The notes: a model not told the origin generated them from the sequence alone. A stretch of DNA of 64,000 nucleotides from an uncultured delta proteobacterium (GCA_963804955.1 CAWDSQ010000010.1:1-64000), one strand, 5' to 3'; counted from the first letter of the stretch, positions 4,394 through 43,552 are shown. Made by a program: numbers and translations.

Positions 4394-6058
4394 TCAGTCA
4401 GCTTTCACGAATATGGGGTTTGAATAGAACCATAGATCGGCATAGGCTTCTTCTAAACCGTCGATACCCAGGTTCTGAGTAGCAAGAGTGTCGAGCAGAG
4501 GGTTGCCTTCCGCGTCGGTTTCAAAGGGCGTACCCGCGGGCACGTTCGTGCCGCGAAGGCGGAAGTACATGTCTTTATCCACATTTTTTATAGTGTAGGT
4601 GATAGTCTTCCAGCCGTCGTGTTCCCGCCAGTCCTCTTCCGTAAAGGTGGCGATAACCTTTGTGGACTCATTGGTTGCCTTTGTATAATCAGGAGATGAG
4701 GGATCAATTTTTCCGGTCACATCGCCGGCAATAAGGTCAATATGGTCAACATTTACTGCATCGCCATTGTTATTGGTCTCAGGGCTCTTAAAACGTATAA
4801 CGATCTTGATGCCCGGCTTGTTCTTTGTCAGCACAAGCTCCTGCCCCATGGTAGCGGTGTTTTTCGGGCATTTACGGTCAACGATGGTGAAATCAAGCGC
4901 ATTAATCAGATCGCCGTTGACGACAAACGAGTTTCCTGAACGAAGGCCGTTGATATATGCCCGTGGCTTATTTGCATCTTTTACATATACATAGGTTTTC
5001 TGGTATTCGCCGGGCCAGAAATCGTCGCCGCCGTCGGTCCAGTGAAGATGGCAGTCGGAGCTTGCAAAGTTCCACCAGTGCCGTCCTTCGCCAAGCAGAG
5101 CATCCCACAGGCCTCCGACTTTAGCGGTGTAATACCCGGCGCCGCCGTAGGTGCCCGTACCGACCGCGCCTGAGCCGAATCCGCCGCGGTCACTGTTTAC
5201 CTGATGGCCGGGAAGCCCCTCGAAGCCGAAACATACATCGGGGCCGGCATTGTTCAGATCGCGGAAATGATTGATGTCATATCCGCCGGTTGCATATGTC
5301 CCCTTGCGTTCAACATGCGCAGGGACTGTATAGCTTGCACCCGGATGATTTGCCTGAAGCCATGCCACGGCTTCAACCGCTTTTGCATGTTTGGTGAGCG
5401 CTGATTTCACCCAGCCCTGCGCCGCACCGCCGCTGATGTCTGCATCGCTGTTGTCGAATTTGTACTCAAACTCGGCAAGGGCTTTCGTATTGGGATTGTA
5501 TTTATCAAACTGTCCTGTAATGAGTGCTACGCTGCAATGCTCATGACCGGGCATATTCCATTCAAAGCCCTGCAGAATCATTTTGTCAGGATAGTCAGCC
5601 CGGGCTTTCAAAACATCCTGCACAAGATAATCCCGCAGGCTCTGCCACCGCCACATAAGCTGATGGCCGCCGCTTGTTTTTACATCGCCGATGATGGGAT
5701 TTGGCACGTAGCTGTCCCAGTAGACATCCCCTCCATTATCAATGCCATGCCTGCCGTCTCGATTGAAACCGCCGCCATGCTCCGACTGCGTCCACCAGTC
5801 AAGGCCGAATTCCTTGTTTTTCTCCATCATGTAATCATAGGAGTAACTGCCGTCGGTGTAAGTCGTGTGCTGGTGGAAATCACCGGCAAGATAGTCGGAT
5901 ATTCGGTAGCACTTTGGGGTTGTTTCCTTGCCCGTGTTCTGGTGGAAATCAGAGCCAAAATGTTCCCCTGCCAGTGATGCCTGCGCGAGCGTAAGGCTCA
6001 AAGCCGGTACAAGCAAAAAGTTAAGCAGGCCGCTGCTTTTTTTTGTTCTTTTTTTCAT
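4394..6058 (-). CDS. Secreted PHP-family metallo-phosphoesterase
   Basis: Signal peptide, LAGDFHQHT..TDG, SEH, HEH, PAHVER and SSDCH metal-binding motifs, C-terminal YSNPIFV. Confidence 0.75.
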   Translation of the reverse strand: MKKRTKKSSGLLNFLLVPALSLTLAQASLAGEHFGSDFHQNTGKETTPKCYRISDYLAGDFHQHTTYTDGSYSYDYMMEKNKEFGLDWWTQSEHGGGFNRDGRHGIDNGGDVYWDSYVPNPIIGDVKTSGGHQLMWRWQSLRDYLVQDVLKARADYPDKMILQGFEWNMPGHEHCSVALITGQFDKYNPNTKALAEFEYKFDNSDADISGGAAQGWVKSALTKHAKAVEAVAWLQANHPGASYTVPAHVERKGTYATGGYDINHFRDLNNAGPDVCFGFEGLPGHQVNSDRGGFGSGAVGTGTYGGAGYYTAKVGGLWDALLGEGRHWWNFASSDCHLHWTDGGDDFWPGEYQKTYVYVKDANKPRAYINGLRSGNSFVVNGDLINALDFTIVDRKCPKNTATMGQELVLTKNKPGIKIVIRFKSPETNNNGDAVNVDHIDLIAGDVTGKIDPSSPDYTKATNESTKVIATFTEEDWREHDGWKTITYTIKNVDKDMYFRLRGTNVPAGTPFETDAEGNPLLDTLATQNLGIDGLEEAYADLWFYSNPIFVKAD

Positions 6059-6351
6059 TATAATCCCCTTTATTAAATTATTAATCACACTAAGAAGGTG
6101 TTTTATTCTGTACGCATCTTTTACTTTTAGCGGTGCCCCGTTGTGTTTATCCGTGTATTTCCGGCAACCGGAACACCCCTTGTACACGTAGCCAATCTCT
6201 GTTTGCTCCCACCACCTCCTTTCCTCTGATGGATCTGTTCCGTTGCCGGATGTCCTTCAGCATGACGAGGTTCCCGCTTTTATTAATAGGCGCCGATTTT
6301 TCGTCTCGGTCTGTTCTGCGTGCACCTGTGCGCAACAAGTGTTTACGGGTA

Positions 6352-6405
6352 AGTGTAGCCGGTAAGTTTTAAGGCGAAATAAGGATCAGGTTAAATACTA
6401 GTTAA
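6352..6405 (-). promoter_or_regulatory. Pho-box-like array plus -10 (TACACT) for the PHP phosphoesterase
   Basis: TTAA at 6402, 6391, degenerate 6380, 6369; -10 at +15. Confidence 0.75.
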
Positions 6406-6450
6406 CTGCGCGCATTGCTGCGCCAGCTGCGATAATGAAAAAGGGAGGGC

Positions 6451-6524
6451 AAAAAGGAAGGGGGCCTTGCGGCCCCCAGGGGAGGAAAAGTAACACTGAA
6501 GTGAGCAGCCTCAGCGTACTCTTT
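6451..6524 (-). ncRNA. Candidate Pho-regulated small RNA, sibling 1
   Basis: Own upstream promoter array. Predicted transcript AAAGAGUACGCUGAGG-loop-CUUCAGUGUUACUUUU hairpin, CCUCCCC linker, GGGGGCC-GCAA-GGCCCCC terminator and pyrimidine/U tail. No ORF. Confidence 0.55.
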
Positions 6525-6530
6525 AACAGC

Positions 6531-6584
6531 AGTATAGCTGAGGTTCTTTAAGGGCTGATAAAAATTGCTTTAAAATCAGGTTAA
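6531..6584 (-). promoter_or_regulatory. Pho-box-like array plus -10 (TATACT) driving candidate sRNA 1
   Basis: Minus strand reads TTAACCTGATT TTAAAGCAATT TTTATCAGCCC TTAAAGAACCT cagc TATACT. Confidence 0.75.
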
Positions 6585-6591
6585 TTTTTCA

Positions 6592-7645
6592 CTATACCCG
6601 GCCGTGCCTGACATGAAAAGACAGGGTGGAGCCCGTGACCATGCTGCGGCCGGTATAAATAAATATGAACAGCCACAGCCCCTGAAGGCCGATAATGCCG
6701 GCAGGCTGCCATAAAAGGCGCAGTCCCGCTGCGATATCCATGCTGCGCACCGTGCTGTCAAGCGGGAGCAGGGCAAGTACTGCGGCATAGGCAATGCCGG
6801 CGGCGCTCATGATCTGATAGGCTGATATGGCGCCTCCTCCCCGGTAGTCGGCCCGGAAAAATTCAGAGGCAATGCGCCACAGATGATTGACGGTAACGGT
6901 CAGTATGAAGGCTGCACGCAGGTGGCCGCGCAGAATCAGCCAGCATCCCGCAAGCCCGGCGGCGCAGTTGATCACAGCGGTGACGGCCTGAATAGGAATG
7001 ACGGGCGTACCATCAAGCCCGTGGGCATAGGCAATCTTTTTTGTAGCGCCCGAAAAGATAAAAGACCTGGAGCGAAAAAAGCCTCCTCATCCAGACGGGA
7101 GCGCGCGACAGGGGCATGCCGTAGCAGCAGCCGAAGCTGATGCAGGCCAGCCTGCCCAGACCTTCACCAAAACAATAAGCTGTGCAAACTGCGGCAACTA
7201 CAGGCAGTACGCGCAGGTCCCAGCCCAGTTTTTCTCCAACCGCCGCCTGCACGGCAACCACTGCAGCGGGAATGGCGATGATGCCGGCAAATGCCGCCCC
7301 TCCCACGGTGAGCACATGGCGTTTGCGCTCTACGAGGCGCGCGATGATGGAAGCAGCCGGTATGCAGATGGCCAGTACGGCAATGGTCATGGCGGCTATG
7401 GCTGCTGCAGGGGTTCCCATGGCCCCCATCAGCATGATTAAAACCGTGACGGCAGCCGTATAGGCTGTTGCGCTGAAAAATCCGTACCAGGTTAGATTAA
7501 CTCCCGACCAGGTCCCGTCGGGGTACTTGCGCAGCGGCACGGCCGCCATCATCTGCCAGCGCTCATCAGGAAGGCGCTTGAAAGCCCATGCCAGCAGGAG
7601 CGCAACGGGCAGAGCCAGACACAGGGTGAACAGCTCAGGAGTCAT
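6592..7645 (-). CDS. Lgt (prolipoprotein diacylglyceryl transferase)-like membrane protein, frameshifted near 7070
   Basis: Multiple TM helices, GRLACISFGCCYG (Lgt GR.g..nGe.yG-like motif) and WRIASEFFRAD (R...EFfR). Two ORF pieces, 7013..7684 and 6592..6975. Confidence 0.75.
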
Positions 7646-8687
7646 GGCGTCCTCCTGTTTTGTTGTCCCCGTTGCCGGCAGCAATGGCCCGGCCGATCAG
7701 AGACCGGACCTGAACGTCCGTTTCAACCAGCTGCGCGCCGAAGCCCTGCGAATAACGGCTGTAGGCGCCCTGATGGCGCATATTAGCGATGATATCATCG
7801 CAGAAGAGAACCCTGTTTTTTTGAAACACAAGCACGTCGGTTGAGCTGCCGGGGCGGTAGAGGCTCTTGGGGCAGCCCTTTTCCAGGAACAGGCCCTGCA
7901 CGACGAACTGCGGGCTGTCGTAGCGCTTCCGGCTGTAGCACTGCACGATATCGCCGATCATGAGGGCCACGATTTCAATCATGGCAACAAGCCCTATGCC
8001 CGTGCCGCCAACCACGTCGGTGTCGATGATGGTTACCACGCGTTTATTTTTTGAATAGGGCGTTGCGACCGTGACGACGGCCGACGGATTTGCCGGATGA
8101 TAACAGCCGGGAATTTCATAGAGCTCAAGCACGCGGCCCGAGACCGGAACATGGTTATAGTGGTACTTGTCGGGCGTGAGGCGGAATACGGCGAAATCGC
8201 CGCCCCTGAACTCCTGCAGCCACAGGGAGCGGTCAAAGCCGATCAGCTCATCGAGGTTGAAGAATTTTTCCTTTAAAAAAATCTGGGATGTGTCGGCAAG
8301 CGACCCCACCAGTAACCTGCCGTCGGCAGGAGAGACGATACCGTCGGGATCGGCGGGCATGGGCCGGGTTTCCCAATAACGTATTTGACGCTCGAATATT
8401 TTTTTTGCCGTGTTCAGCCGCTCGCCCGGTTCGAGGCATTCCGAAAGATCTATGCCAAGCCGCTCCACGAACCGGTGCGCGCCAGCCAGGCGCGACAGGG
8501 TCGGCAGCTCGTAATTCACCATGCTCAGCAGGCCGGACATGCGCGACGAGGTCAGCGCCTTGAACAGGGCCGGCGACTGCTCACGGTCGCTGTTGTACAG
8601 ATAGGAAATAATGCGGTCACCGTAGAGCCGTTCGGTCATGACACGGCGGGTGCCCCTCTCAATATACTGATGCTGCGGTATTTTCAT
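7635..8687 (-). CDS. Phosphatidylserine decarboxylase-family protein
   Basis: VSPADG, FRLTPDKYHYNHVPVSG and PGSST self-cleavage motif. Confidence 0.85.
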   Translation of the reverse strand: MKIPQHQYIERGTRRVMTERLYGDRIISYLYNSDREQSPALFKALTSSRMSGLLSMVNYELPTLSRLAGAHRFVERLGIDLSECLEPGERLNTAKKIFERQIRYWETRPMPADPDGIVSPADGRLLVGSLADTSQIFLKEKFFNLDELIGFDRSLWLQEFRGGDFAVFRLTPDKYHYNHVPVSGRVLELYEIPGCYHPANPSAVVTVATPYSKNKRVVTIIDTDVVGGTGIGLVAMIEIVALMIGDIVQCYSRKRYDSPQFVVQGLFLEKGCPKSLYRPGSSTDVLVFQKNRVLFCDDIIANMRHQGAYSRYSQGFGAQLVETDVQVRSLIGRAIAAGNGDNKTGGRHDS

Positions 8688-11085
8688 GCTGTGTTTCCTC
8701 ACAAGCCCCTGCCGCTTCTTCAGCCTGAATACACAGCAGCAGCAGAGCGATAAAGGTTCTCAGCGAATCCTCCGACAGTTTGCCTGCGGCCATCACGTGT
8801 CCGAGGTCTGCGGCACATGCCTCGGCGCTGCCCCCGCCGAGCAATTCGGCCAGCGTTTCGCGAAACTGCCCGCGGCCTTCAAGGGCCATGCGGTCAAGCA
8901 GCCGCGCCGAATCAAGACAGACTGTTGAGGCTTCCTCACTATGCTGGCGCCGCAGCACGGTGCGGTAATAGCCTTCGGCGGCGGCATTGAAATCGCCTGC
9001 GGGCATGCCCATGGCAGAGCGCCCGCCGCACTGGTCAAGAATGCCCGCCGTGAGCCTGCCGGCTGCAGATGCTGCTGGGTTAGTGATCCGCTCTTCCAGG
9101 CGCTCCAGGGTAGCCTGCATGCCCATATTTTCGATAAGATCAGCGGCATCCTGACGAATGATGGTCAGCAGCGCCCGAAGGTACTCATCATTGTGGCATC
9201 TGGTATATCCGGGATACCGGTTGCTGGTGCGGGTCTTTTTCATGCTGCCGAGAATGTGGGTCAAGAACCGGTTTTGCGTATCGCTGCGCACGAAAAATGT
9301 TGGTATGCCGATTGCAGCGCCGAAAAATATTTGCCGCCTTTCACTTTCACAGGTCGGGCTGTCGGGGATATGCTCATGGGTGAGTTGCCCGTCGGCAATG
9401 TATTTATAGGCCAAAGCAGTGAGAAGTGTCTGCAGATTGACGGCATCGGCCATATCGCCAAGCAGTGTTGCAAACAGGCTGTAATAGCGCCCTTCAAAAC
9501 CCGAAAAACCCATAGCAGCATGCTGCCGAAGCCGGTAAAACAGATAGGGCGACATGCGCTCGTCGAAAACTCCCAGATCGGCAAGGTCTTTTTTCAGGCG
9601 CAGGTCATTGCCGGGCGAGCCGTCGAGTGCCGGGCTCTGGTCCGTACTCATGAGCGCAACCGGATAATCGATCAACCGGTAATCCTGAACAAAATCGCCC
9701 CGGAGTTTAAACAGCCCGCTGACAAACCGGTCAAGCGCGGGCGGGCCGAAAGGCGTCAGCGGCTGGCCCATGATTTTCACATCGGCCTTCAGCTTCCAGC
9801 GCCGCCACAGCATGCGCAAATGCGTATAATCAAGCTCATGGGGCAGAAATCCGAGCACGGTTTCTGGATGGAAATCGCCGAACTCCAGCCGGTAGGGCGC
9901 AGCGCTGTACGTGCCCACAAAAAGGGGGAGGAAATGCTCGACGATTTTTATAGCCAGATCCCCGCAATATTTTTCATCGGCTGCGGTGAACGCGGAACCC
10001 CGTGCCGCGAGCAGGTCCGTCAGTTTCCGGCTACCGAGACTGACATGGGTTCCGTTATTGGCAAGACTGATATTTGACAGATTCGGCAGCACAACCAGAT
10101 CGCGCGTAATAATGCCCGCGTCCTTGAGCTTGGCAAGCGTATTGAGCTGGCTGCGTGACAGCACCTGGTGGCACAGTATCATGTACTGGTGCTTCTCCTG
10201 GCCATGGTCCCAGCCTGAAAGACAGGGGCTCATAAACAGCTCGCGATAGAAACCGTCGCTGATTATGTTGTTCAGGCTCTTCTGGCGTACGGGTGGATGA
10301 GGCGCAAAATAGGCAAGAACGCGCTGGCCGCTTGCGGCAAGCCCGAACCGGTTTTCGCCGTACTGTATCAAAAGCTGGGTCAGCAGAAACCGCAACGCTG
10401 TTTCCCGGGCAGGTTGCGCTCCCATGCCGCGACCGGGCAGCAGCGCCGGCGTATAGAATGAAAATGTTTCAGGCGAGGTGTTGTCGTTCAGGAAATGGTC
10501 CATGTACCTTCGGCCGGTTTGACGGACGGCTTCAGGCGTAAATGCCGAGGCGCTGACTGCATCGGCAAGGGCGAGCTTCAAAAGGTAGCTGACGGGCACG
10601 CGCAAGCACCGTTCACCCCTATCCTTGATGATGAACTTCGCGGAATCAATACGGTCCGGACTCTGCGGGTCGGTTTTGTCGGCGCGCAGATCGTCATGAA
10701 AAACCGAACGCGCATAGCTGCTCAGGCAACGGTAGGGAAACCGCACCCAACTATGCTCCCAGACATTGTCAGGGTTATTGTTCAGATACTTTTCAAGCTC
10801 GGCAATAAGCCGCTGCGAGGTATCGCCGGACAGGGTGCGCCGAATAATGTTTTTATAATAATTGGACTGCTCAATTGTACGGGGCAGGTCAACAGACTCT
10901 TTTGCGCCTATTACGACGGTTTGCAGCTCGTTTTCAACCCCGGCAGTCACATCGCCTGAGGTAAAGGGCAGGGCTTCCACAAAGGCATCGCCGGCGGCGC
11001 AGCGTATGCCGAGGGCCTCACAAAGTCTTTCCGGATTTGTCTTTCCGCCGCTTCTGAAAGGGTAGGAAAGTACAGGTGCTGTCAT
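8659..11085 (-). CDS. Conserved hypothetical protein with glutamate-cysteine-ligase/carboxylate-amine-ligase-like motifs
   Basis: 808-aa intact ORF. AGVENELQ, NNGTHVSLG and FEGR occur in the order of the GCS/GS-fold G.E.E, G.H.h.g and E.R motifs (fold assignment is inference). Confidence 0.6.
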   Translation of the reverse strand: MTAPVLSYPFRSGGKTNPERLCEALGIRCAAGDAFVEALPFTSGDVTAGVENELQTVVIGAKESVDLPRTIEQSNYYKNIIRRTLSGDTSQRLIAELEKYLNNNPDNVWEHSWVRFPYRCLSSYARSVFHDDLRADKTDPQSPDRIDSAKFIIKDRGERCLRVPVSYLLKLALADAVSASAFTPEAVRQTGRRYMDHFLNDNTSPETFSFYTPALLPGRGMGAQPARETALRFLLTQLLIQYGENRFGLAASGQRVLAYFAPHPPVRQKSLNNIISDGFYRELFMSPCLSGWDHGQEKHQYMILCHQVLSRSQLNTLAKLKDAGIITRDLVVLPNLSNISLANNGTHVSLGSRKLTDLLAARGSAFTAADEKYCGDLAIKIVEHFLPLFVGTYSAAPYRLEFGDFHPETVLGFLPHELDYTHLRMLWRRWKLKADVKIMGQPLTPFGPPALDRFVSGLFKLRGDFVQDYRLIDYPVALMSTDQSPALDGSPGNDLRLKKDLADLGVFDERMSPYLFYRLRQHAAMGFSGFEGRYYSLFATLLGDMADAVNLQTLLTALAYKYIADGQLTHEHIPDSPTCESERRQIFFGAAIGIPTFFVRSDTQNRFLTHILGSMKKTRTSNRYPGYTRCHNDEYLRALLTIIRQDAADLIENMGMQATLERLEERITNPAASAAGRLTAGILDQCGGRSAMGMPAGDFNAAAEGYYRTVLRRQHSEEASTVCLDSARLLDRMALEGRGQFRETLAELLGGGSAEACAADLGHVMAAGKLSEDSLRTFIALLLLCIQAEEAAGACEETQHENTAASVY

Positions 11086-11120
11086 GCTAATGTCCTTTAA
11101 ATTTTTATTTTTCTGTTTTT

Positions 11121-11174
11121 GTTATAGCCGCCGCAGGTTAAAGCTGTGTTAACTTTATGATAATTATCAATTAA
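11121..11174 (-). promoter_or_regulatory. Pho-box-like array plus -10 (TATAAC) for the ligase-PSD-Lgt operon
   Basis: TTAA 11171, ATAA 11160, TTAA 11149, TTAA 11138; -10 at +15. Confidence 0.8.
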
Positions 11175-11199
11175 TTCGTGGAGTTAGTCCTCCAGCGTG

Positions 11200-12225
11200 T
11201 CATGGGCCGTCCGGTTGCTGCTGCCGGACTTTGGGTGCAGCTTTTAACACGGTACCGCCCGGCATGAGGTGGGCTTTGATTTTTTGCACCATGTCAGCCC
11301 AGGCGGCAGCGCCAACGCTCTGCTCATTGATAATCATATGGCGGGCGATTGCGGCATCGGTAGTATTGTCTTTTACTATGCTGACAAGGTCCCACCGGTC
11401 AAACCCATTATCGCTGACGAACTCCTGTAGATTCTCGAAGGATACGAATTCATCCTCCTGATCCATGAAAAGGAGCGTCGGCACATTGAGCCGGGGGCCG
11501 AGATTTGCCTCAAAATTCCTGATTGCGTCAAAAAGAGCAGTATAGCCAGCCACGGGCGTGCCGTCATTGGCACGCTGATTTTCAGGGGCTTCGCTGTCGA
11601 TGACAAGCTCGGGGAAAGGCTTAAGCGGCCTCAGATGATACCCGATGGACGGATGGAGCGTAAGGGCCGGAGCCAAAAGCAGCATCCGATCAAAATGAAC
11701 GCCGGGCTTGGCCGCCAGCAGGTCGCAGCCCAGCAGGCCGCCAAGCGAGTAGCCGACAAAATATAAGGGCACGCCGAGTTTGCGGGCCCGGTGCATGGCT
11801 TGCACATAGGCCTGATGAACTTCATTGAGCCATAAAAAATACGCAACGCTCTTGAAGGATTCAAGGCGGTCGCGCTTATCATCGGCAGGGCGGCTCCCCC
11901 GGCGAATGAAATTAGCGCCATGGCCCCGCAGCGAAACGTTCAGCGCTTCGATGCCTGCACTGTTCAGAATGGCAATAATGGGCTCCATCATTTCCGGCCT
12001 TATGTTTAAGCCATGCACAATCAGCGCGATAGCAATGGGCTTTTTATAAGAAGCGGATTTAAACCAGCGGCTGCAATGATCCTGACGGGCAATAAGCTCT
12101 TGTATGAAGGCGTTTGCCCCTGCAGGAGCTATGCGGGAAAGGTCGCCACTATACATATAAATACAGGCGGCAACAGCCGCCGCTGCAGCGAATCCAACCA
12201 GCACGAGCCTTCGATAGGATTTCAT
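11200..12225 (-). CDS. Alpha/beta hydrolase (esterase/lysophospholipase-like) with N-terminal anchor
   Basis: VHGLN, LRGHG and GYSLG nucleophile elbow; late Asp/His candidates (DEFV, RHM). Confidence 0.8.
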   Translation of the reverse strand: MKSYRRLVLVGFAAAAAVAACIYMYSGDLSRIAPAGANAFIQELIARQDHCSRWFKSASYKKPIAIALIVHGLNIRPEMMEPIIAILNSAGIEALNVSLRGHGANFIRRGSRPADDKRDRLESFKSVAYFLWLNEVHQAYVQAMHRARKLGVPLYFVGYSLGGLLGCDLLAAKPGVHFDRMLLLAPALTLHPSIGYHLRPLKPFPELVIDSEAPENQRANDGTPVAGYTALFDAIRNFEANLGPRLNVPTLLFMDQEDEFVSFENLQEFVSDNGFDRWDLVSIVKDNTTDAAIARHMIINEQSVGAAAWADMVQKIKAHLMPGGTVLKAAPKVRQQQPDGP

Positions 12226-12286
12226 ATACAGGCGCCTTTTTTTACGGTCAGGTTCTGCAGGGCCGTCTGGGCTTCCTGCTGCTGAT

Positions 12287-12357
12287 AAAAAAAGGGGGCC
12301 TTGCGGCCCCCTGGAGGAGGAGAGATGCTGAAAAAAGCGGTTTCAACACTTCTCTGT
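12287..12357 (-). ncRNA. Candidate Pho-regulated small RNA, sibling 2
   Basis: AGAGAAGUGUUGAAA-loop-UUUCAGCAUCUCU hairpin, CCUCCUCC linker, AGGGGGCC-GCAA-GGCCCCCU terminator followed by a U-run. Same architecture as 6451-6524. Confidence 0.55.
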
Positions 12358-12361
12358 TTTT

Positions 12362-12417
12362 AATATATACGGCTACTCGGTTAAAAAAAAATAATGGGTT
12401 GATTAATTTACGGTTAA
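12362..12417 (-). promoter_or_regulatory. Pho-box-like array plus -10 (TATATA/TATATT) driving candidate sRNA 2
   Basis: TTAA at 12414, 12403, degenerate ~12392, 12381. Confidence 0.75.
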
Positions 12418-12820
12418 TTTTTAGCTCTTCAAAATCGCAACCGATGATCCATCCGCACAACCATAAAAACAGCCGCCACCGGGGGGTGTGCTGTGATGCC
12501 ATCAGGGGATGTTGCTCAATGTTTTGAAACGTAACCCATAGTGTGCTGTTTAGCGACACGGGCCAGGAACAATAAAATGGGTCCTTCTGCGAAACGGGTA
12601 ACAAAGTCAACGATACGTTTAAGGTTTTGGTAATGCGCAGGGTTCTGATGCAGTTGCTTATGAAGGTGGCTATCATGAAAGCAATATGTCCAGGGCCTAT
12701 CTTATGTGGTCCACATTGAAATTGATTTGCCAAGTTTCCGGGGTGTTTCATCGTGCAGAACGTCGATGATGCTGCCGCTGTATAAGGCTGTATCACGCGC
12801 ACAGCCCTATTGTTATATTC

Positions 12821-13213: not shown

Positions 13214-13267
13214 TTAACCGAAAATTAACCCGCGCTTTATTTGCCGTTAACTCTCCACGGGTATTGT
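13214..13267 (+). promoter_or_regulatory. Pho-box-like array plus -10 (TATTGT) for the TonB/ExbBD operon
   Basis: TTAACCGAAAA TTAACCCGCGC TTTATTTGCCG TTAACTCTCCA cggg TATTGT. Confidence 0.8.
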
Positions 13268-27495: not shown

Positions 27496-27753
27496 CTAAC
27501 GGTTGGGCCTTCTGCTTTTTGCTGTTTCGGATTTCAGATATTTTTTTATCTGCCTTGCGGTATCGTTATGATTTTTGCCGGCTGCAAAATTTTTTCGGTA
27601 ATTTCCGTTTCGGGCGATAGTTTCGGCCGCCCTTGAATCAAGTTTCATAATTCCCCGTTTCAGCCAGGCCCCCGGATCAAAGGCCTGCACTGACTGCGCC
27701 GGTAGCACGAAGCATACTGCAACAATGAGTCCAAGAAAAAGTTTGCCTTTCAT
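27496..27753 (-). CDS. Small secreted hypothetical protein
   Basis: GGAGG RBS and signal peptide MKGKLFLGLIVAVCFVLPAQSVQA. Confidence 0.6.
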   Translation of the reverse strand: MKGKLFLGLIVAVCFVLPAQSVQAFDPGAWLKRGIMKLDSRAAETIARNGNYRKNFAAGKNHNDTARQIKKYLKSETAKSRRPNR

Positions 27754-27806
27754 AGCCTGCCTCCATCGCAATGTACAATCATCAGTTTTTCTGTTTCTCT
27801 GCAGGC

Positions 27807-27860
27807 AGTATGGCCTTAACGTATTAAGCGGATATAAAAATACGGTTAAGAATGTGTTAA
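27807..27860 (-). promoter_or_regulatory. Pho-box-like array plus -10 (CATACT)
   Basis: TTAA 27857, 27846, degenerate 27835, 27824; -10 at +15. Confidence 0.7.
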
Positions 27861-28002: not shown

Positions 28003-28656
28003 TCAACTGATAGTATGATGCTTTATCACCCGGCCCTGAAGCATGAAAATGGTGTCTTCGGCGATATTGGTGGCAAGGTCGGCGATGCGCTCAAGGTTTT
28101 CGGCGATCCGCAGGATATTGATGCAGTGGCTTATGATGGAAGGATTTTCCGTCATGAAGGTGATGAGCTCACGCAAAATCTGGTTGCGCATGTCGTCGAT
28201 GATGCTGTCGCGGCGGCAGACCTCCATGGCAAGCTGCGGGTCTTCGTTGATGAACGACTCAATGACATCGGCAAGCATGCCCCGCACCAGCTCGCTCATG
28301 CGCGGTATGTCGATGAAGGGCTTGATGGGCGGCACCTGTATGAGCTCCAGGGCATTTTTTGAAATATTGACCGCATGGTCTCCCATGCGCTCTAAGGCGG
28401 CATTCATATCGTACACCACCAGGATCGTGCGCAGGTCCCTGGCCATGGGCTGAAACTGCGCTATCAGGTTGGTGCAGGCCTCATCGATATCCAGTTCGAA
28501 GCGGTTGGCCTTTGGCTCGTCCTGATCGACCAGCTCCAGCAGCAGTGTTTCATTGCGGCTTACCAGCCCCTTGACGCTTTTATCAATCATGCGTTCGATA
28601 TGGGCGCTGAACTGAATAATTTCGCCTTTGAGTTCATTTAATCGTTCCGGCTGCAT
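28003..28656 (-). CDS. phoU: Phosphate signalling protein PhoU (copy 1)
   Basis: QP.ARDLR, LERMGDHAVNI and LERIADLATNIAE motifs. Confidence 0.95.
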   Translation of the reverse strand: MQPERLNELKGEIIQFSAHIERMIDKSVKGLVSRNETLLLELVDQDEPKANRFELDIDEACTNLIAQFQPMARDLRTILVVYDMNAALERMGDHAVNISKNALELIQVPPIKPFIDIPRMSELVRGMLADVIESFINEDPQLAMEVCRRDSIIDDMRNQILRELITFMTENPSIISHCINILRIAENLERIADLATNIAEDTIFMLQGRVIKHHTIS

Positions 28657-31623: not shown

Positions 31624-32676
31624 CTACTGCACTATCGCAGCTCCGTCATAGGTGGCTGACTTTAAAATCGCCTCAGCCTTTTTAACTGCTTCAGCCGGCA
31701 GCGGCGCATAGTCAAGGCCCTCTGCAAGCTGCTGGCCCTCATGCAGAATCCATCCCAGGAGATTTACAAGATCCGCGGCCTTTTCTTTTGAGCGTCCGGC
31801 ATAGTTCTGTTCTTTGTAAAACACCAGCCAGGTAAAGCCTGAAATCGGGTAGCCGTCTTTGGCTGCAGTGTTGACGATGCTCACGCGCGTGTCATCGGGA
31901 ATGGCCACGCCTGCGGCGGCGGTGACCGATTTCATGGAAGGCTTAATGAAAACGCCCGACTTGTTTTTGACATCGGCATAGGGCATTTTGTTCTGCACCG
32001 CATAAATAAGCTCAACATAGCCGATAGCGCCGGGCACCTGCTTCACAAGGCCTGCCACACCGGGATTGCCTTTGGCGCCAAGGCCGTTCGGCCAGTTGAG
32101 CGACTTGCCCGCGCCCACGCGCTCTTTCCATTCGGCGCTGACCGTGCTCAGATAATCGCTGAAAATAGCCGTGGTGCCGCTGCCGTCTGAGCGATGCACG
32201 GTGGCGATATTCATGTCGGGCAGCAGCATGCCCGGATTGACATGTCAACGATGCGCTTGTCATTCCATTTTTCAATTCTGCCGAGGAATATATCAACGAT
32301 CAGGTTCGAGGTCAGTTTGATTGCCGGATCGCCGGGTACATTATAGGTAATGACCACGGCGCCAAGGCAGGTGGGAATATGCAGAATGGGGGCCCCGGCT
32401 TCCGCCATTTCCTTGTCTTTCATGCAATCGTCAGTGCCGCCGAAATCAACGGTCTTGGCCTTCAGCTGCTGAATGCCGCCGCCCGAGCCGATGGCCTGAT
32501 AATTGACCTTAACGCCTTTTTCCTGGTTGTAGGTGTCAAACAGCTTGGAGTAGATACGGGAACGGGAAGGTCGCGCCTGCTCCCAAAAGCTCTTTGGCCT
32601 CGGCCCGCGCACCAGGCAGCAAAGCTGCGGCCAGGGCGAACAAAAGCGTGATCACGGTGAGCGCTGCTTTTTTCAT
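31624..32676 (-). CDS. pstS: Phosphate-binding protein PstS (system 1, frameshifted)
   Basis: VNYQAIGSGGG, HRSDGSGTT, GAIGYVE and YPISGFTW across ORF pieces. Confidence 0.95.
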
Positions 32677-35474: not shown

Positions 35475-36294
35475 TGCCGAGGCTTGCACCATGTTTTGCT
35501 GGCAGCGCTGTGCCTGTGGGCGGCGGGCTGCGGCGGGGAATCGTCATCCCGGGCAATTTATGAGAAGCATGTCGTCAATATAGCCGGGTCGACCTCGGTC
35601 ATGCCGTTTACGGAAAAGCTCGCCGAGCATTTTATGGTCGAGCAGCCGACTTTTATCGTCAATGTGCAGTCCGGCGGCTCAACAGCAGGCATTCAGGCCT
35701 GCATGAACAAAACCGTTGGCATCGGCATGAGCTCCCGCGAGCTGAAGCCTGATGAGAAAGCGCTCAATGAAATTACGATCTGCCTTGACGGCATCGCCAT
35801 GGTCGTGCATCCGGACAATCCCGTTACCAGCATGAAGCTTGCGCAGGTGCGCGATATTTTCAGCGGAAAAATAAAAAACTGGAAGGAGCTCGGCTGGCTC
35901 GACCGCCGCATCGATGCTGTGACGCGCGAGGAGGGCTCGGGCACGCGCGGGGCTTTTGAAGAACTGGTGATGCACAAGGATCGAAATCGATGACGGCATC
36001 ATGGTGCAGGACTCAAACGGCTCGGTGAAGGAAGTGGTGGCTACCGACCCCTATGCCATCGGCTATGTGTCGCTGGGCATGGTCGATACGCGCGTGTCGG
36101 CGGTCACCATCGATGACGTAAAACCCACGGTCGAAGCCATTAAAAAAAAGAAGTATAAAATCGTCCGGCCGTTTCTCTATCTCACCATGGGCACGCCGAC
36201 CGGCGACGCACTGACATTTATCAACTATGTGCTGTCAAAAGACGGCCAGGTGCTTTTGAGAAAAGAAGGGCTGATACCGGTTTATGAGTTCTAA
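35474..36294 (+). CDS. pstS: Lipoprotein phosphate-binding protein PstS (system 2, frameshifted)
   Basis: Lipobox AAGC, AGSTSV, GGSTAG, SSREL, REEGSGTRG, AIGYVS, RPF. Confidence 0.9.
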
Positions 36295-43478: not shown

Positions 43479-43552
43479 TCGGGGATCGTCCAACGGCAGG
43501 ACTCGGGAATTTGGATCCCGCTACGAAGGTTCGAATCCTTCTCCCCGAGCCA
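43479..43552 (+). tRNA. tRNA-Gln(UUG)
   Basis: Cloverleaf TCGGGGA/TCCCCGA acceptor, GTCC/GGAC D-arm, CGGGA-ATTTGGA-TCCCG anticodon arm, GGTTCGAATCC T-loop, encoded CCA. Confidence 0.95.

Follow-up and report, generated by a model that had tools for sequence, protein, structure and literature searches.

Paralogous putative small RNAs behind Pho-box-type promoters in the phosphate-regulon island of an uncultured delta proteobacterium

What are the two short elements that lie on the minus strand of a 64,000-nucleotide (nt) stretch of DNA from an uncultured delta proteobacterium? Each is preceded by an array of direct repeats and closed by the same G-C-rich hairpin, an arrangement that could belong to a small RNA gene, to the leader of the gene that follows, or to the end of the operon that precedes it. 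The stretch (GCA_963804955.1, CAWDSQ010000010.1:1-64000), which we call the window throughout, is part of contig C10 of an assembly, G000, of 4,264,429 bp (4.26 Mb) that is 87% complete. The original prediction, made from the sequence of the window, was that the elements, at 6451-6524 and 12287-12357, are sibling, apparently Pho-controlled small RNAs with a shared fold. Both elements are present at those positions, and that description proved accurate to within a few bases. Their components are as follows.

6584-6546, minus strand: promoter array of copy 1 (type A), hexamers TTAACC/TTAAAG/TTTATC/TTAAAG in 11-bp phase, an exact match to the strict promoter pattern given below; it begins 8 nt past the stop codon of a gene for a 127-amino-acid (aa) protein
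6536-6531, minus strand: -10 box TATACT of copy 1, after a 9-nt gap behind the fourth hexamer
~6524-6451, minus strand: predicted small RNA copy 1 (type A), ~74 nt
6523-6486, minus strand: stem-loop 1 (SL1) of copy 1, a 15-pair hairpin
6485-6478, minus strand: pyrimidine linker of copy 1, CCUCCCCU, with a mean probability of being unpaired, P(unpaired), of 1.00
6477-6460, minus strand: terminator hairpin of copy 1, GGGGGCC-GCAA-GGCCCCC, followed by the U-rich tail UUCCUUUUU at 6459-6451
12417-12379, minus strand: promoter array of copy 2 (type B), hexamers TTAACC/TTAATC/ATTATT/TTAACC
12369-12364, minus strand: -10 box TATATA of copy 2
~12357-12287, minus strand: predicted small RNA copy 2 (type B), ~71 nt
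12354-12320, minus strand: SL1 of copy 2
12319-12313, minus strand: linker of copy 2, CUCCUCC, mean P(unpaired) 0.99
12312-12293, minus strand: terminator hairpin of copy 2, identical to that of copy 1, then seven U

The 5' and 3' ends of both RNAs were deduced from promoter and terminator geometry, and the RNAs themselves were assigned from their folds and from matches to the covariance models described below. Ahead of each stand the four repeats and the -10 box that had been claimed, with the 11-bp phase and the 9-nt gap in both cases, and both carry a linker with CCUCC, the same hairpin and a U-rich tail. The 5' hairpins had been said to differ in sequence and still to pair; between the copies the upper stem of SL1 has two double and three single changes, all with pairing kept. 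The minimum free energy (MFE) folds have energies of -33.1 kcal/mol (z -4.3) for copy 1 and -31.9 kcal/mol (z -5.1) for copy 2, and none of 200 shuffles of either copy was as stable as the native fold (0/200 and 0/200). The 3' hairpins are intrinsic terminators by the usual criteria, with 7-8 G-C pairs and a 4-nt loop followed by UUCCUUUUU or UUUUUUU. The 18-mer that forms this hairpin occurs twice in the window, against 0.05 expected, and twice in the whole genome (4,264,429 bp, up to 2 mismatches). It is thus no dispersed genome-wide repeat, which refutes an explanation raised alongside the original prediction. That prediction had also described the family as unrecognised, and a search of Rfam 15 bore this out: at gathering thresholds the sole match in the window is a tRNA (43479-43549), neither RNA element being matched, and at E values up to 10 the region 6000-12800 gave five weak, chance-level matches, none of which overlaps either RNA element. 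We conclude that copies 1 and 2 are paralogous putative RNAs of ~72 nt with the same build.

From three promoters, namely the two RNA arrays and an array at 6405 ahead of a PHP/CehA-like gene, we defined a strict pattern: TTAAC, TTAA, TTAT and TTAA in phase, then TA...W at -10, with at most 1 mismatch. Six matches fall in the window, where 100 shuffles predict 0.00, and seven across the 4.26 Mb of the genome; the four that lie outside the set used for the definition are at 13214, 27860, 34626 and C22:132562. The promoters concerned, together with one looser array, are listed here.

13214-13267, plus strand: Pho-box array and -10 box, divergent, ahead of a DUF3450/ExbB (TonB-system) operon; an exact strict match
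27860, minus strand: strict array adjoining phoU
34626, minus strand: strict array heading one of two pst operons
C22:132562: strict array preceding a phoB/phoR-like operon; the seventh genomic match, outside the window
6405-6367, minus strand: separate array after copy 1, with -10 box TACACT at 6357-6352, the promoter for a 597-aa PHP/CehA-like metallohydrolase gene at 4394-6187
11174-11121, minus strand: looser array and -10 box TATAAC, between an alpha/beta-hydrolase gene and a gene for an 808-aa protein

The products of the operon on contig C22 have PhoB (TIGR02154, 236.5 bits, below the cut-off of 296.2) and PnpS/PhoR kinases as their best matches; the gene for the PhoB-like regulator is C22:132711-133394. 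Looser arrays of the Pho-box type occur in the window at 2959, 11174, 13107 and 21529, and the exopolyphosphatase gene (ppx) is likewise preceded by one. The window also holds two divergent pst operons, two phoU genes and a TonB/ExbB/DUF3450 system. With six of the seven strict matches and these Pho genes in one place, the window is a phosphate-regulon island of which both RNA promoters are typical members. The separate array behind copy 1, which the original prediction had pointed out, is real, and the apparent Pho control that it proposed gains from the array being the same as that at the pst, phoU-adjacent, TonB/ExbB and phoB/phoR-like promoters. Direct repeats with an 11-bp period that take the place of a -35 box, at a fixed distance from the -10 box, define Pho-box promoters; this arrangement is found at all nine copies of the RNA described below, and the same motif stands ahead of core Pho-regulon genes of G000. 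From this shared architecture we infer that both RNA promoters are of the PhoB/PhoP type and that they would be bound by the regulator and induced at low phosphate.

Both pstS-like genes of the island look split (31624-32229 with 32211-32612, minus strand; 35484-35993 with 36001-36294, plus strand), which may reflect frameshifts, assembly errors or genes that are truly divided.

To establish how widely the RNA occurs, we built a covariance model (R1) from the two window copies and ran it over 61 genomes. It gave nine strong matches of 49-98 bits, the next best scoring 28 bits, and all nine lie in four genomes, the source genome G000 and its relatives G001, G002 and G004, which with G003 make up five genomes of one genus. 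Within G000 the only matches are C10:6448-6526 and C10:12284-12359. A second model (R2), built from the nine copies, was run over 17 genomes of the family and 42 of the class. In the family set it added to the nine only two weak matches, G001:C57 and G003:C18, which we rejected as members since they are gene-end terminators without arrays. In the class set four genomes were matched, belonging to 1 of 26 genera: four of the five genomes of the genus, and none of the 37 class genomes outside it (0/37). The fifth genome of the genus, G003 (79% complete), has no RNA, and neither the 127-aa gene nor the hydrolase gene was found there, so that the entire locus is missing or unassembled in that genome. 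In G006, from another genus, the 127-aa homologue and hydrolase genes are adjacent, with no RNA element in the region between them.

In all nine copies the array agrees with 14-15 of 16 core positions and is separated by 9 nt from a -10 box of the form TATNNN. In each the MFE structure is the same two-hairpin fold, consisting of SL1, a free linker and the terminator, and in each the pyrimidine tract is unpaired (mean P(unpaired) 0.93-1.00). The GCU of the apical loop and UG...UUCA in the arms do not vary (9/9); of the tract, what is kept is that it consists of pyrimidines only, not its exact sequence. In a model-fitted alignment of the nine copies, 93.8% of cells form pairs, and sliding the partners lowers this to 46-62%. 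The covariation score, 0.274, lies above the 0.205 of shuffles, none of 500 reaching it (0/500), and double changes occur at 5 of the 13 SL1 pairs. Several points weigh against reading too much into these figures. The number of pairs with double changes was equalled by 107 of 500 shuffles; the terminator stem is invariant in all nine copies and hence uninformative on structure; the alignment (A6) was fitted to the structure; and with nine copies from four closely related metagenome-assembled genomes the covariation is thin. We regard it as supportive, not decisive. The homologue search proposed with the original prediction therefore came out in part as expected: nine copies keep the fold, some with compensatory changes, and they are confined to a single genus instead of extending across the Desulfobacterota.

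Public metagenome contigs were scanned with a pattern of CU tract plus hairpin, giving 48 loci. Five are full-length matches with bit scores equal to those of the three G004 copies, from which they appear to add no new variants. The 13 intermediate matches that were inspected are ordinary gene-end terminators without arrays, and the rest have the hairpin only. In unrelated organisms (loci L063, L084, L093, L094 and others) genes end with a CCUCC-type tract and the same GGGGGCCGCAAGGCCCCC hairpin, which indicates that this terminator sequence arose repeatedly and, taken alone, does not mark a member of the family. Judged by promoter, fold and tract together, we conclude that the nine copies represent a real, conserved and previously undescribed RNA family, restricted to one genus and placed under predicted Pho-box promoters.

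Among the type B and B' copies (loci L020, at 397-420, L038 and L019), about 20 nt past the U tail are also kept (…GCAGC.UGAAGUA…; 12262-12286 in the window). Either the duplication took in more than the RNA, or there are transcripts that run past the terminator.

Each of the four genomes holds two or three copies, within its phosphate-regulon island, and these fall into three types by position.

Type A (G000 copy 1, G001, G002, G004): at the 3' end of the operon of hydrolase, 808-aa, phosphatidylserine-decarboxylase-like (PSD-like), Lgt-like and 127-aa genes
Type B' (G002, G004): after phoU in G002, and head-on to a response-regulator gene in both
Type B (G000 copy 2, G001, G004): ~60-90 nt upstream of the hydrolase start

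The genes next to the two window copies are these.

11200-12225, minus strand: alpha/beta-hydrolase gene, its start 61 nt beyond the copy 2 U run
8659-11085, minus strand: 808-aa orphan
7635-8702, minus strand: PSD-like gene, assigned by a domain match
7013-7684, minus strand: Lgt-like gene, assigned by a domain match
6592-6975, minus strand: 127-aa protein gene

The type B position suggests an alternative: the element would work in cis, as a leader or attenuator of the hydrolase-lipid operon with conditional read-through, and the stand-alone copies would be duplicated, orphaned leaders. Three of the nine copies occupy this leader position, namely copy 2, G001 B and G004 B, and no promoter-like site was seen between the type B RNAs and the hydrolase start (12226-12286 in the window). 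The hydrolase gene would hence be reached only by read-through of the terminator. These two observations count against a purely stand-alone RNA. For the other six copies the positions say otherwise. A second Pho promoter lies 3' of the type A RNA in G000, G001 and G002, a convergent DUF2062 gene lies 3' of that in G004, and a convergent response-regulator gene lies 3' of both B' RNAs; with a second promoter or a convergent gene behind them, these six appear to have no gene to lead, yet promoter, fold and pyrimidine tract are kept. Conversely, the hydrolase gene of G002 has no RNA element upstream, so that no fixed link joins the RNA to that gene. The leader reading also fits the RNA itself poorly: no alternative antiterminator pairing is apparent, the same two-hairpin MFE fold recurring in 9/9, and SL1, a plain hairpin of 12-15 bp, lacks the size and complexity of a ligand-binding aptamer. 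Moreover, the next gene of the operon, for the 808-aa protein, has its own looser array at 11174. We consider it unlikely that the element is such a leader. A riboswitch or other ligand-sensing leader was rejected, there being only this hairpin, one two-hairpin MFE fold throughout, no Rfam match and no downstream gene for six of the nine copies. The claim of the original prediction that copy 1 is a stand-alone transcript is supported for these six copies, and is qualified by copy 2 and its two orthologues in front of the hydrolase gene. For type B copies a dual role, as small RNA and as attenuator, is plausible from their position.

The comparison of positions further indicates that promoter, RNA and terminator are a block that has been moved or copied as a unit. 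The phoU gene that precedes B' in G002 encodes a product 90% identical to that of the window phoU at 28006-28155. Several observations concern these loci. Upstream of the copy 2 array, at 12444-12462 on the minus strand, is a motif, GGTTGTGCGGATGGATCAT, that is common to G001 B and G002 B'. Further upstream, at ~12560-12700 on the same strand, the DNA aligns at ~60-65% with the 3' end of G002 phoU, and at the protein level the resemblance is faint (16 aa, E 0.21); this phoU trace is probably the remains of sequence that travelled with a B'-type unit when it was duplicated into the hydrolase locus. At 27496-27860 (minus strand), the phoU/response-regulator gene interval in which G002 and G004 hold the B' RNA, the window has a Pho array driving a 91-aa open reading frame (ORF); its N-terminus resembles a signal peptide, and it matches no family. 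The hydrolase orthologue of G001 (G001:C121:2076-3089) has one in-frame TAG inside the match.

A second alternative is a transcript devoid of function. On this view the hairpin would simply end transcription of the operon before it (lipid operon or pst-phoU), and the Pho array with its short RNA would be a duplicated promoter remnant or transcriptional noise. Copy 1 is indeed the only terminator seen at the 3' end of the 6592-11085 operon, past the 127-aa gene, and B' follows phoU; the CCUCC-plus-GGGGGCCGCAAGGCCCCC terminators at gene ends in unrelated metagenome contigs point the same way. Transcriptionally inert PhoB sites are also known in E. coli, according to PMC10294691. A remnant, however, would not be expected to look as these elements do, with an intact array, the exact 9-nt spacing, a -10 box, pair-preserving changes in SL1 and an unpaired tract in 9/9 copies. 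These features are kept between species whose neighbouring proteins are only 64-93% identical and in which the adjacent intergenic DNA downstream of the RNAs cannot be aligned. On balance we judge it quite unlikely that the transcripts are inert.

Two further alternatives would place the function in a protein. On the plus strand, antisense to the RNA, GGAGGAGG followed by ATG opens a mini-ORF beginning MLKK..., and such a Shine-Dalgarno sequence, start codon and MLK... peptide of 10-22 aa is present in 6/9 copies (all five B/B' copies and G004 A). In copy 2 it occupies the plus strand of 12313-12360, with the strong Shine-Dalgarno sequence MLKKAVSTLLCF. It is absent from three of the four type A copies, and its length and C-terminus are not conserved; array, -10 box and U tail are all oriented to the minus strand, and no plus-strand promoter-like site is listed beside either window copy. 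The mini-ORF is what CAU and a pyrimidine tract give when read from the opposite strand, and it can be accounted for without separate selection. We hold it extremely improbable that a small protein gene is the functional unit. The other candidate is a 184-aa ORF at 12248-12802 (minus strand), which is open across the promoter and RNA of copy 2 and shows tblastn similarity in relatives. That similarity is limited to the promoter-plus-RNA stretch (33-107 aa), and the ORF has no Pfam or NCBIfam match. In G001 the DUF3450 gene starts ~400 bp upstream, leaving no room for the ORF, and the G002 counterpart of this stretch comes after the stop codon of phoU. With no family matches and a similarity that amounts to promoter plus RNA, we judged the ORF spurious; the chance that copy 2 belongs to a protein-coding gene is negligible.

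How might the RNAs act? We consider it probable, though well short of assured, that they form a genus-restricted family of stand-alone, Pho-box-driven small RNAs of ~70-75 nt, predicted to act in trans on purine-rich ribosome-binding sites. In the proposed mechanism the four direct repeats stand in for a -35 box. At low phosphate the activated response regulator would switch the RNAs on together with pst, phoBR and scavenging genes, and the strong intrinsic terminator would end each RNA. The unpaired tract of 10-13 nt, with its CCUCC core, which the 3' end of the G000 16S rRNA also carries, would then pair with purine-rich, Shine-Dalgarno-type sequences in mRNAs and so alter their translation or stability. 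Action would most likely be independent of Hfq, because neither Hfq nor CsrA was found in G000, the assembly being 87% complete. In type B copies the same terminator would also throttle transcription into the hydrolase gene.

The target searches, together with the lack of a recognised RNA chaperone in that assembly, weigh against regulation through pairing. Genome-wide seeded duplex scans of both strands gave no convincing conserved start-site target; their best sites fell within coding sequence or where there is no gene. In the phoB leader no purine-rich partner for the tract is seen; duplex folding against the leaders of Pho-promoter genes, phoB included, was uninformative because it ignores intramolecular structure. 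The best extended match, with 12+7 nt pairing to copy 2, is the start region of a gene for an FGE-type lipoprotein (C5:194739), a candidate that we dropped because its only clear orthologue is in G003, a genome without the RNA. Finally, GGAGG is present near a candidate start of 423 of 5175 ORFs of at least 150 aa, and a bare CCUCC seed that fits hundreds of start regions leaves specificity unexplained.

There are two other readings. The RNA might bind or sequester a protein through its conserved apical loop and pyrimidine tract, without pairing to mRNA. The invariant loop and arm bases would suit this, as would a tract kept in composition and not in sequence and the failure of the mRNA scans to find a target. 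No candidate partner is apparent, however, with CsrA and Hfq both lacking, and each RNA has a single tract, whereas known protein sponges typically carry repeated motifs; we think this very improbable. Alternatively, the RNAs could be phosphate-starvation-induced mimics of the 16S rRNA 3' end, their exposed CCUCC tracts acting as a global stoichiometric decoy on strong Shine-Dalgarno sites of many mRNAs, with type B also gating the lipid-remodelling operon. Such mimics would depend on bulk output from two or three strong Pho promoters and would involve no regulation of specific targets. Were this so, translation initiation would be throttled across the cell and fewer phosphorus-rich ribosomes would be needed, a decidedly unlikely scenario in our estimation.

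For the small RNAs that we regard as probable, the closest functional analogue is PhoS of Bacillus. As described in PMC11522486, PhoS of B. velezensis and B. subtilis is a small RNA of 66 nt whose expression is induced when phosphate is scarce. It sits at the phoPR 3' end, where a promoter of its own carries four Pho-box motifs, the binding sites of an OmpR-family regulator. Its 5' end holds a C-rich seed of 17 nt that opens up the phoP ribosome-binding site and so activates phoP translation. Compared by description only, the RNAs share with PhoS their shortness, four Pho boxes, a position at an operon 3' end and a C-rich single-stranded tract. They differ in location, since PhoS lies in the phoPR 3' untranslated region (UTR) and the G000 copies are found only in the C10 island, with none at the phoB/phoR-like locus on C22. 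They also differ in the place of the tract, which is internal, between SL1 and the terminator, and not at the 5' end; in the apparent target, since PhoS activates phoP and the phoB leader here offers no purine-rich partner; and in the phylum of the host.

Other small RNAs show parts of the same plan. EsrL of E. coli and PsiR1 of Synechocystis reportedly respond to phosphate supply through the Pho system, and are similar in being phosphate-linked; they come from unrelated lineages, and the RNAs described here match no Rfam family. Small RNAs of the RoxS/RsaE type in Firmicutes pair through unpaired C-rich motifs with the G-rich Shine-Dalgarno region, independently of Hfq; they have several CCC motifs, placed in loops, and their signals are redox state or NO. 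A C-rich, unpaired anti-Shine-Dalgarno motif is what we propose here too, but it is a single linker tract of 10-13 nt behind a Pho-type promoter, and the missing Rfam match speaks against any sequence relationship. In position, the RNAs resemble the 'type I' class of 3'-UTR small RNAs, which lie at operon 3' ends, have their own internal promoter and share the terminator: type A copies are 3' of an operon, with the array 8 nt past the stop codon and the sole terminator seen there, and B' copies are placed likewise after phoU. The type B copies, at a 5' position, depart from this class.

The range of the family, four metagenome-assembled genomes of one uncultured genus, limits its value. Within that range, the Pho box of the lineage is now operationally defined as four TTAAC-type hexamers in 11-bp phase, 9 nt from the -10 box, a definition that delimits the regulon by seven strict sites in the genome. 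Few RNA regulators of phosphorus metabolism are known; according to PMC11522486, almost all known regulators of phosphorus metabolism are proteins. The RNAs probably adjust translation under phosphate scarcity, as their promoters and exposed tracts suggest, and their genes adjoin a putative phosphate-starvation lipid operon that is itself undescribed. If this is true, the family would add a structurally defined, multi-copy small RNA to the Pho regulon of an uncultured anaerobic lineage.

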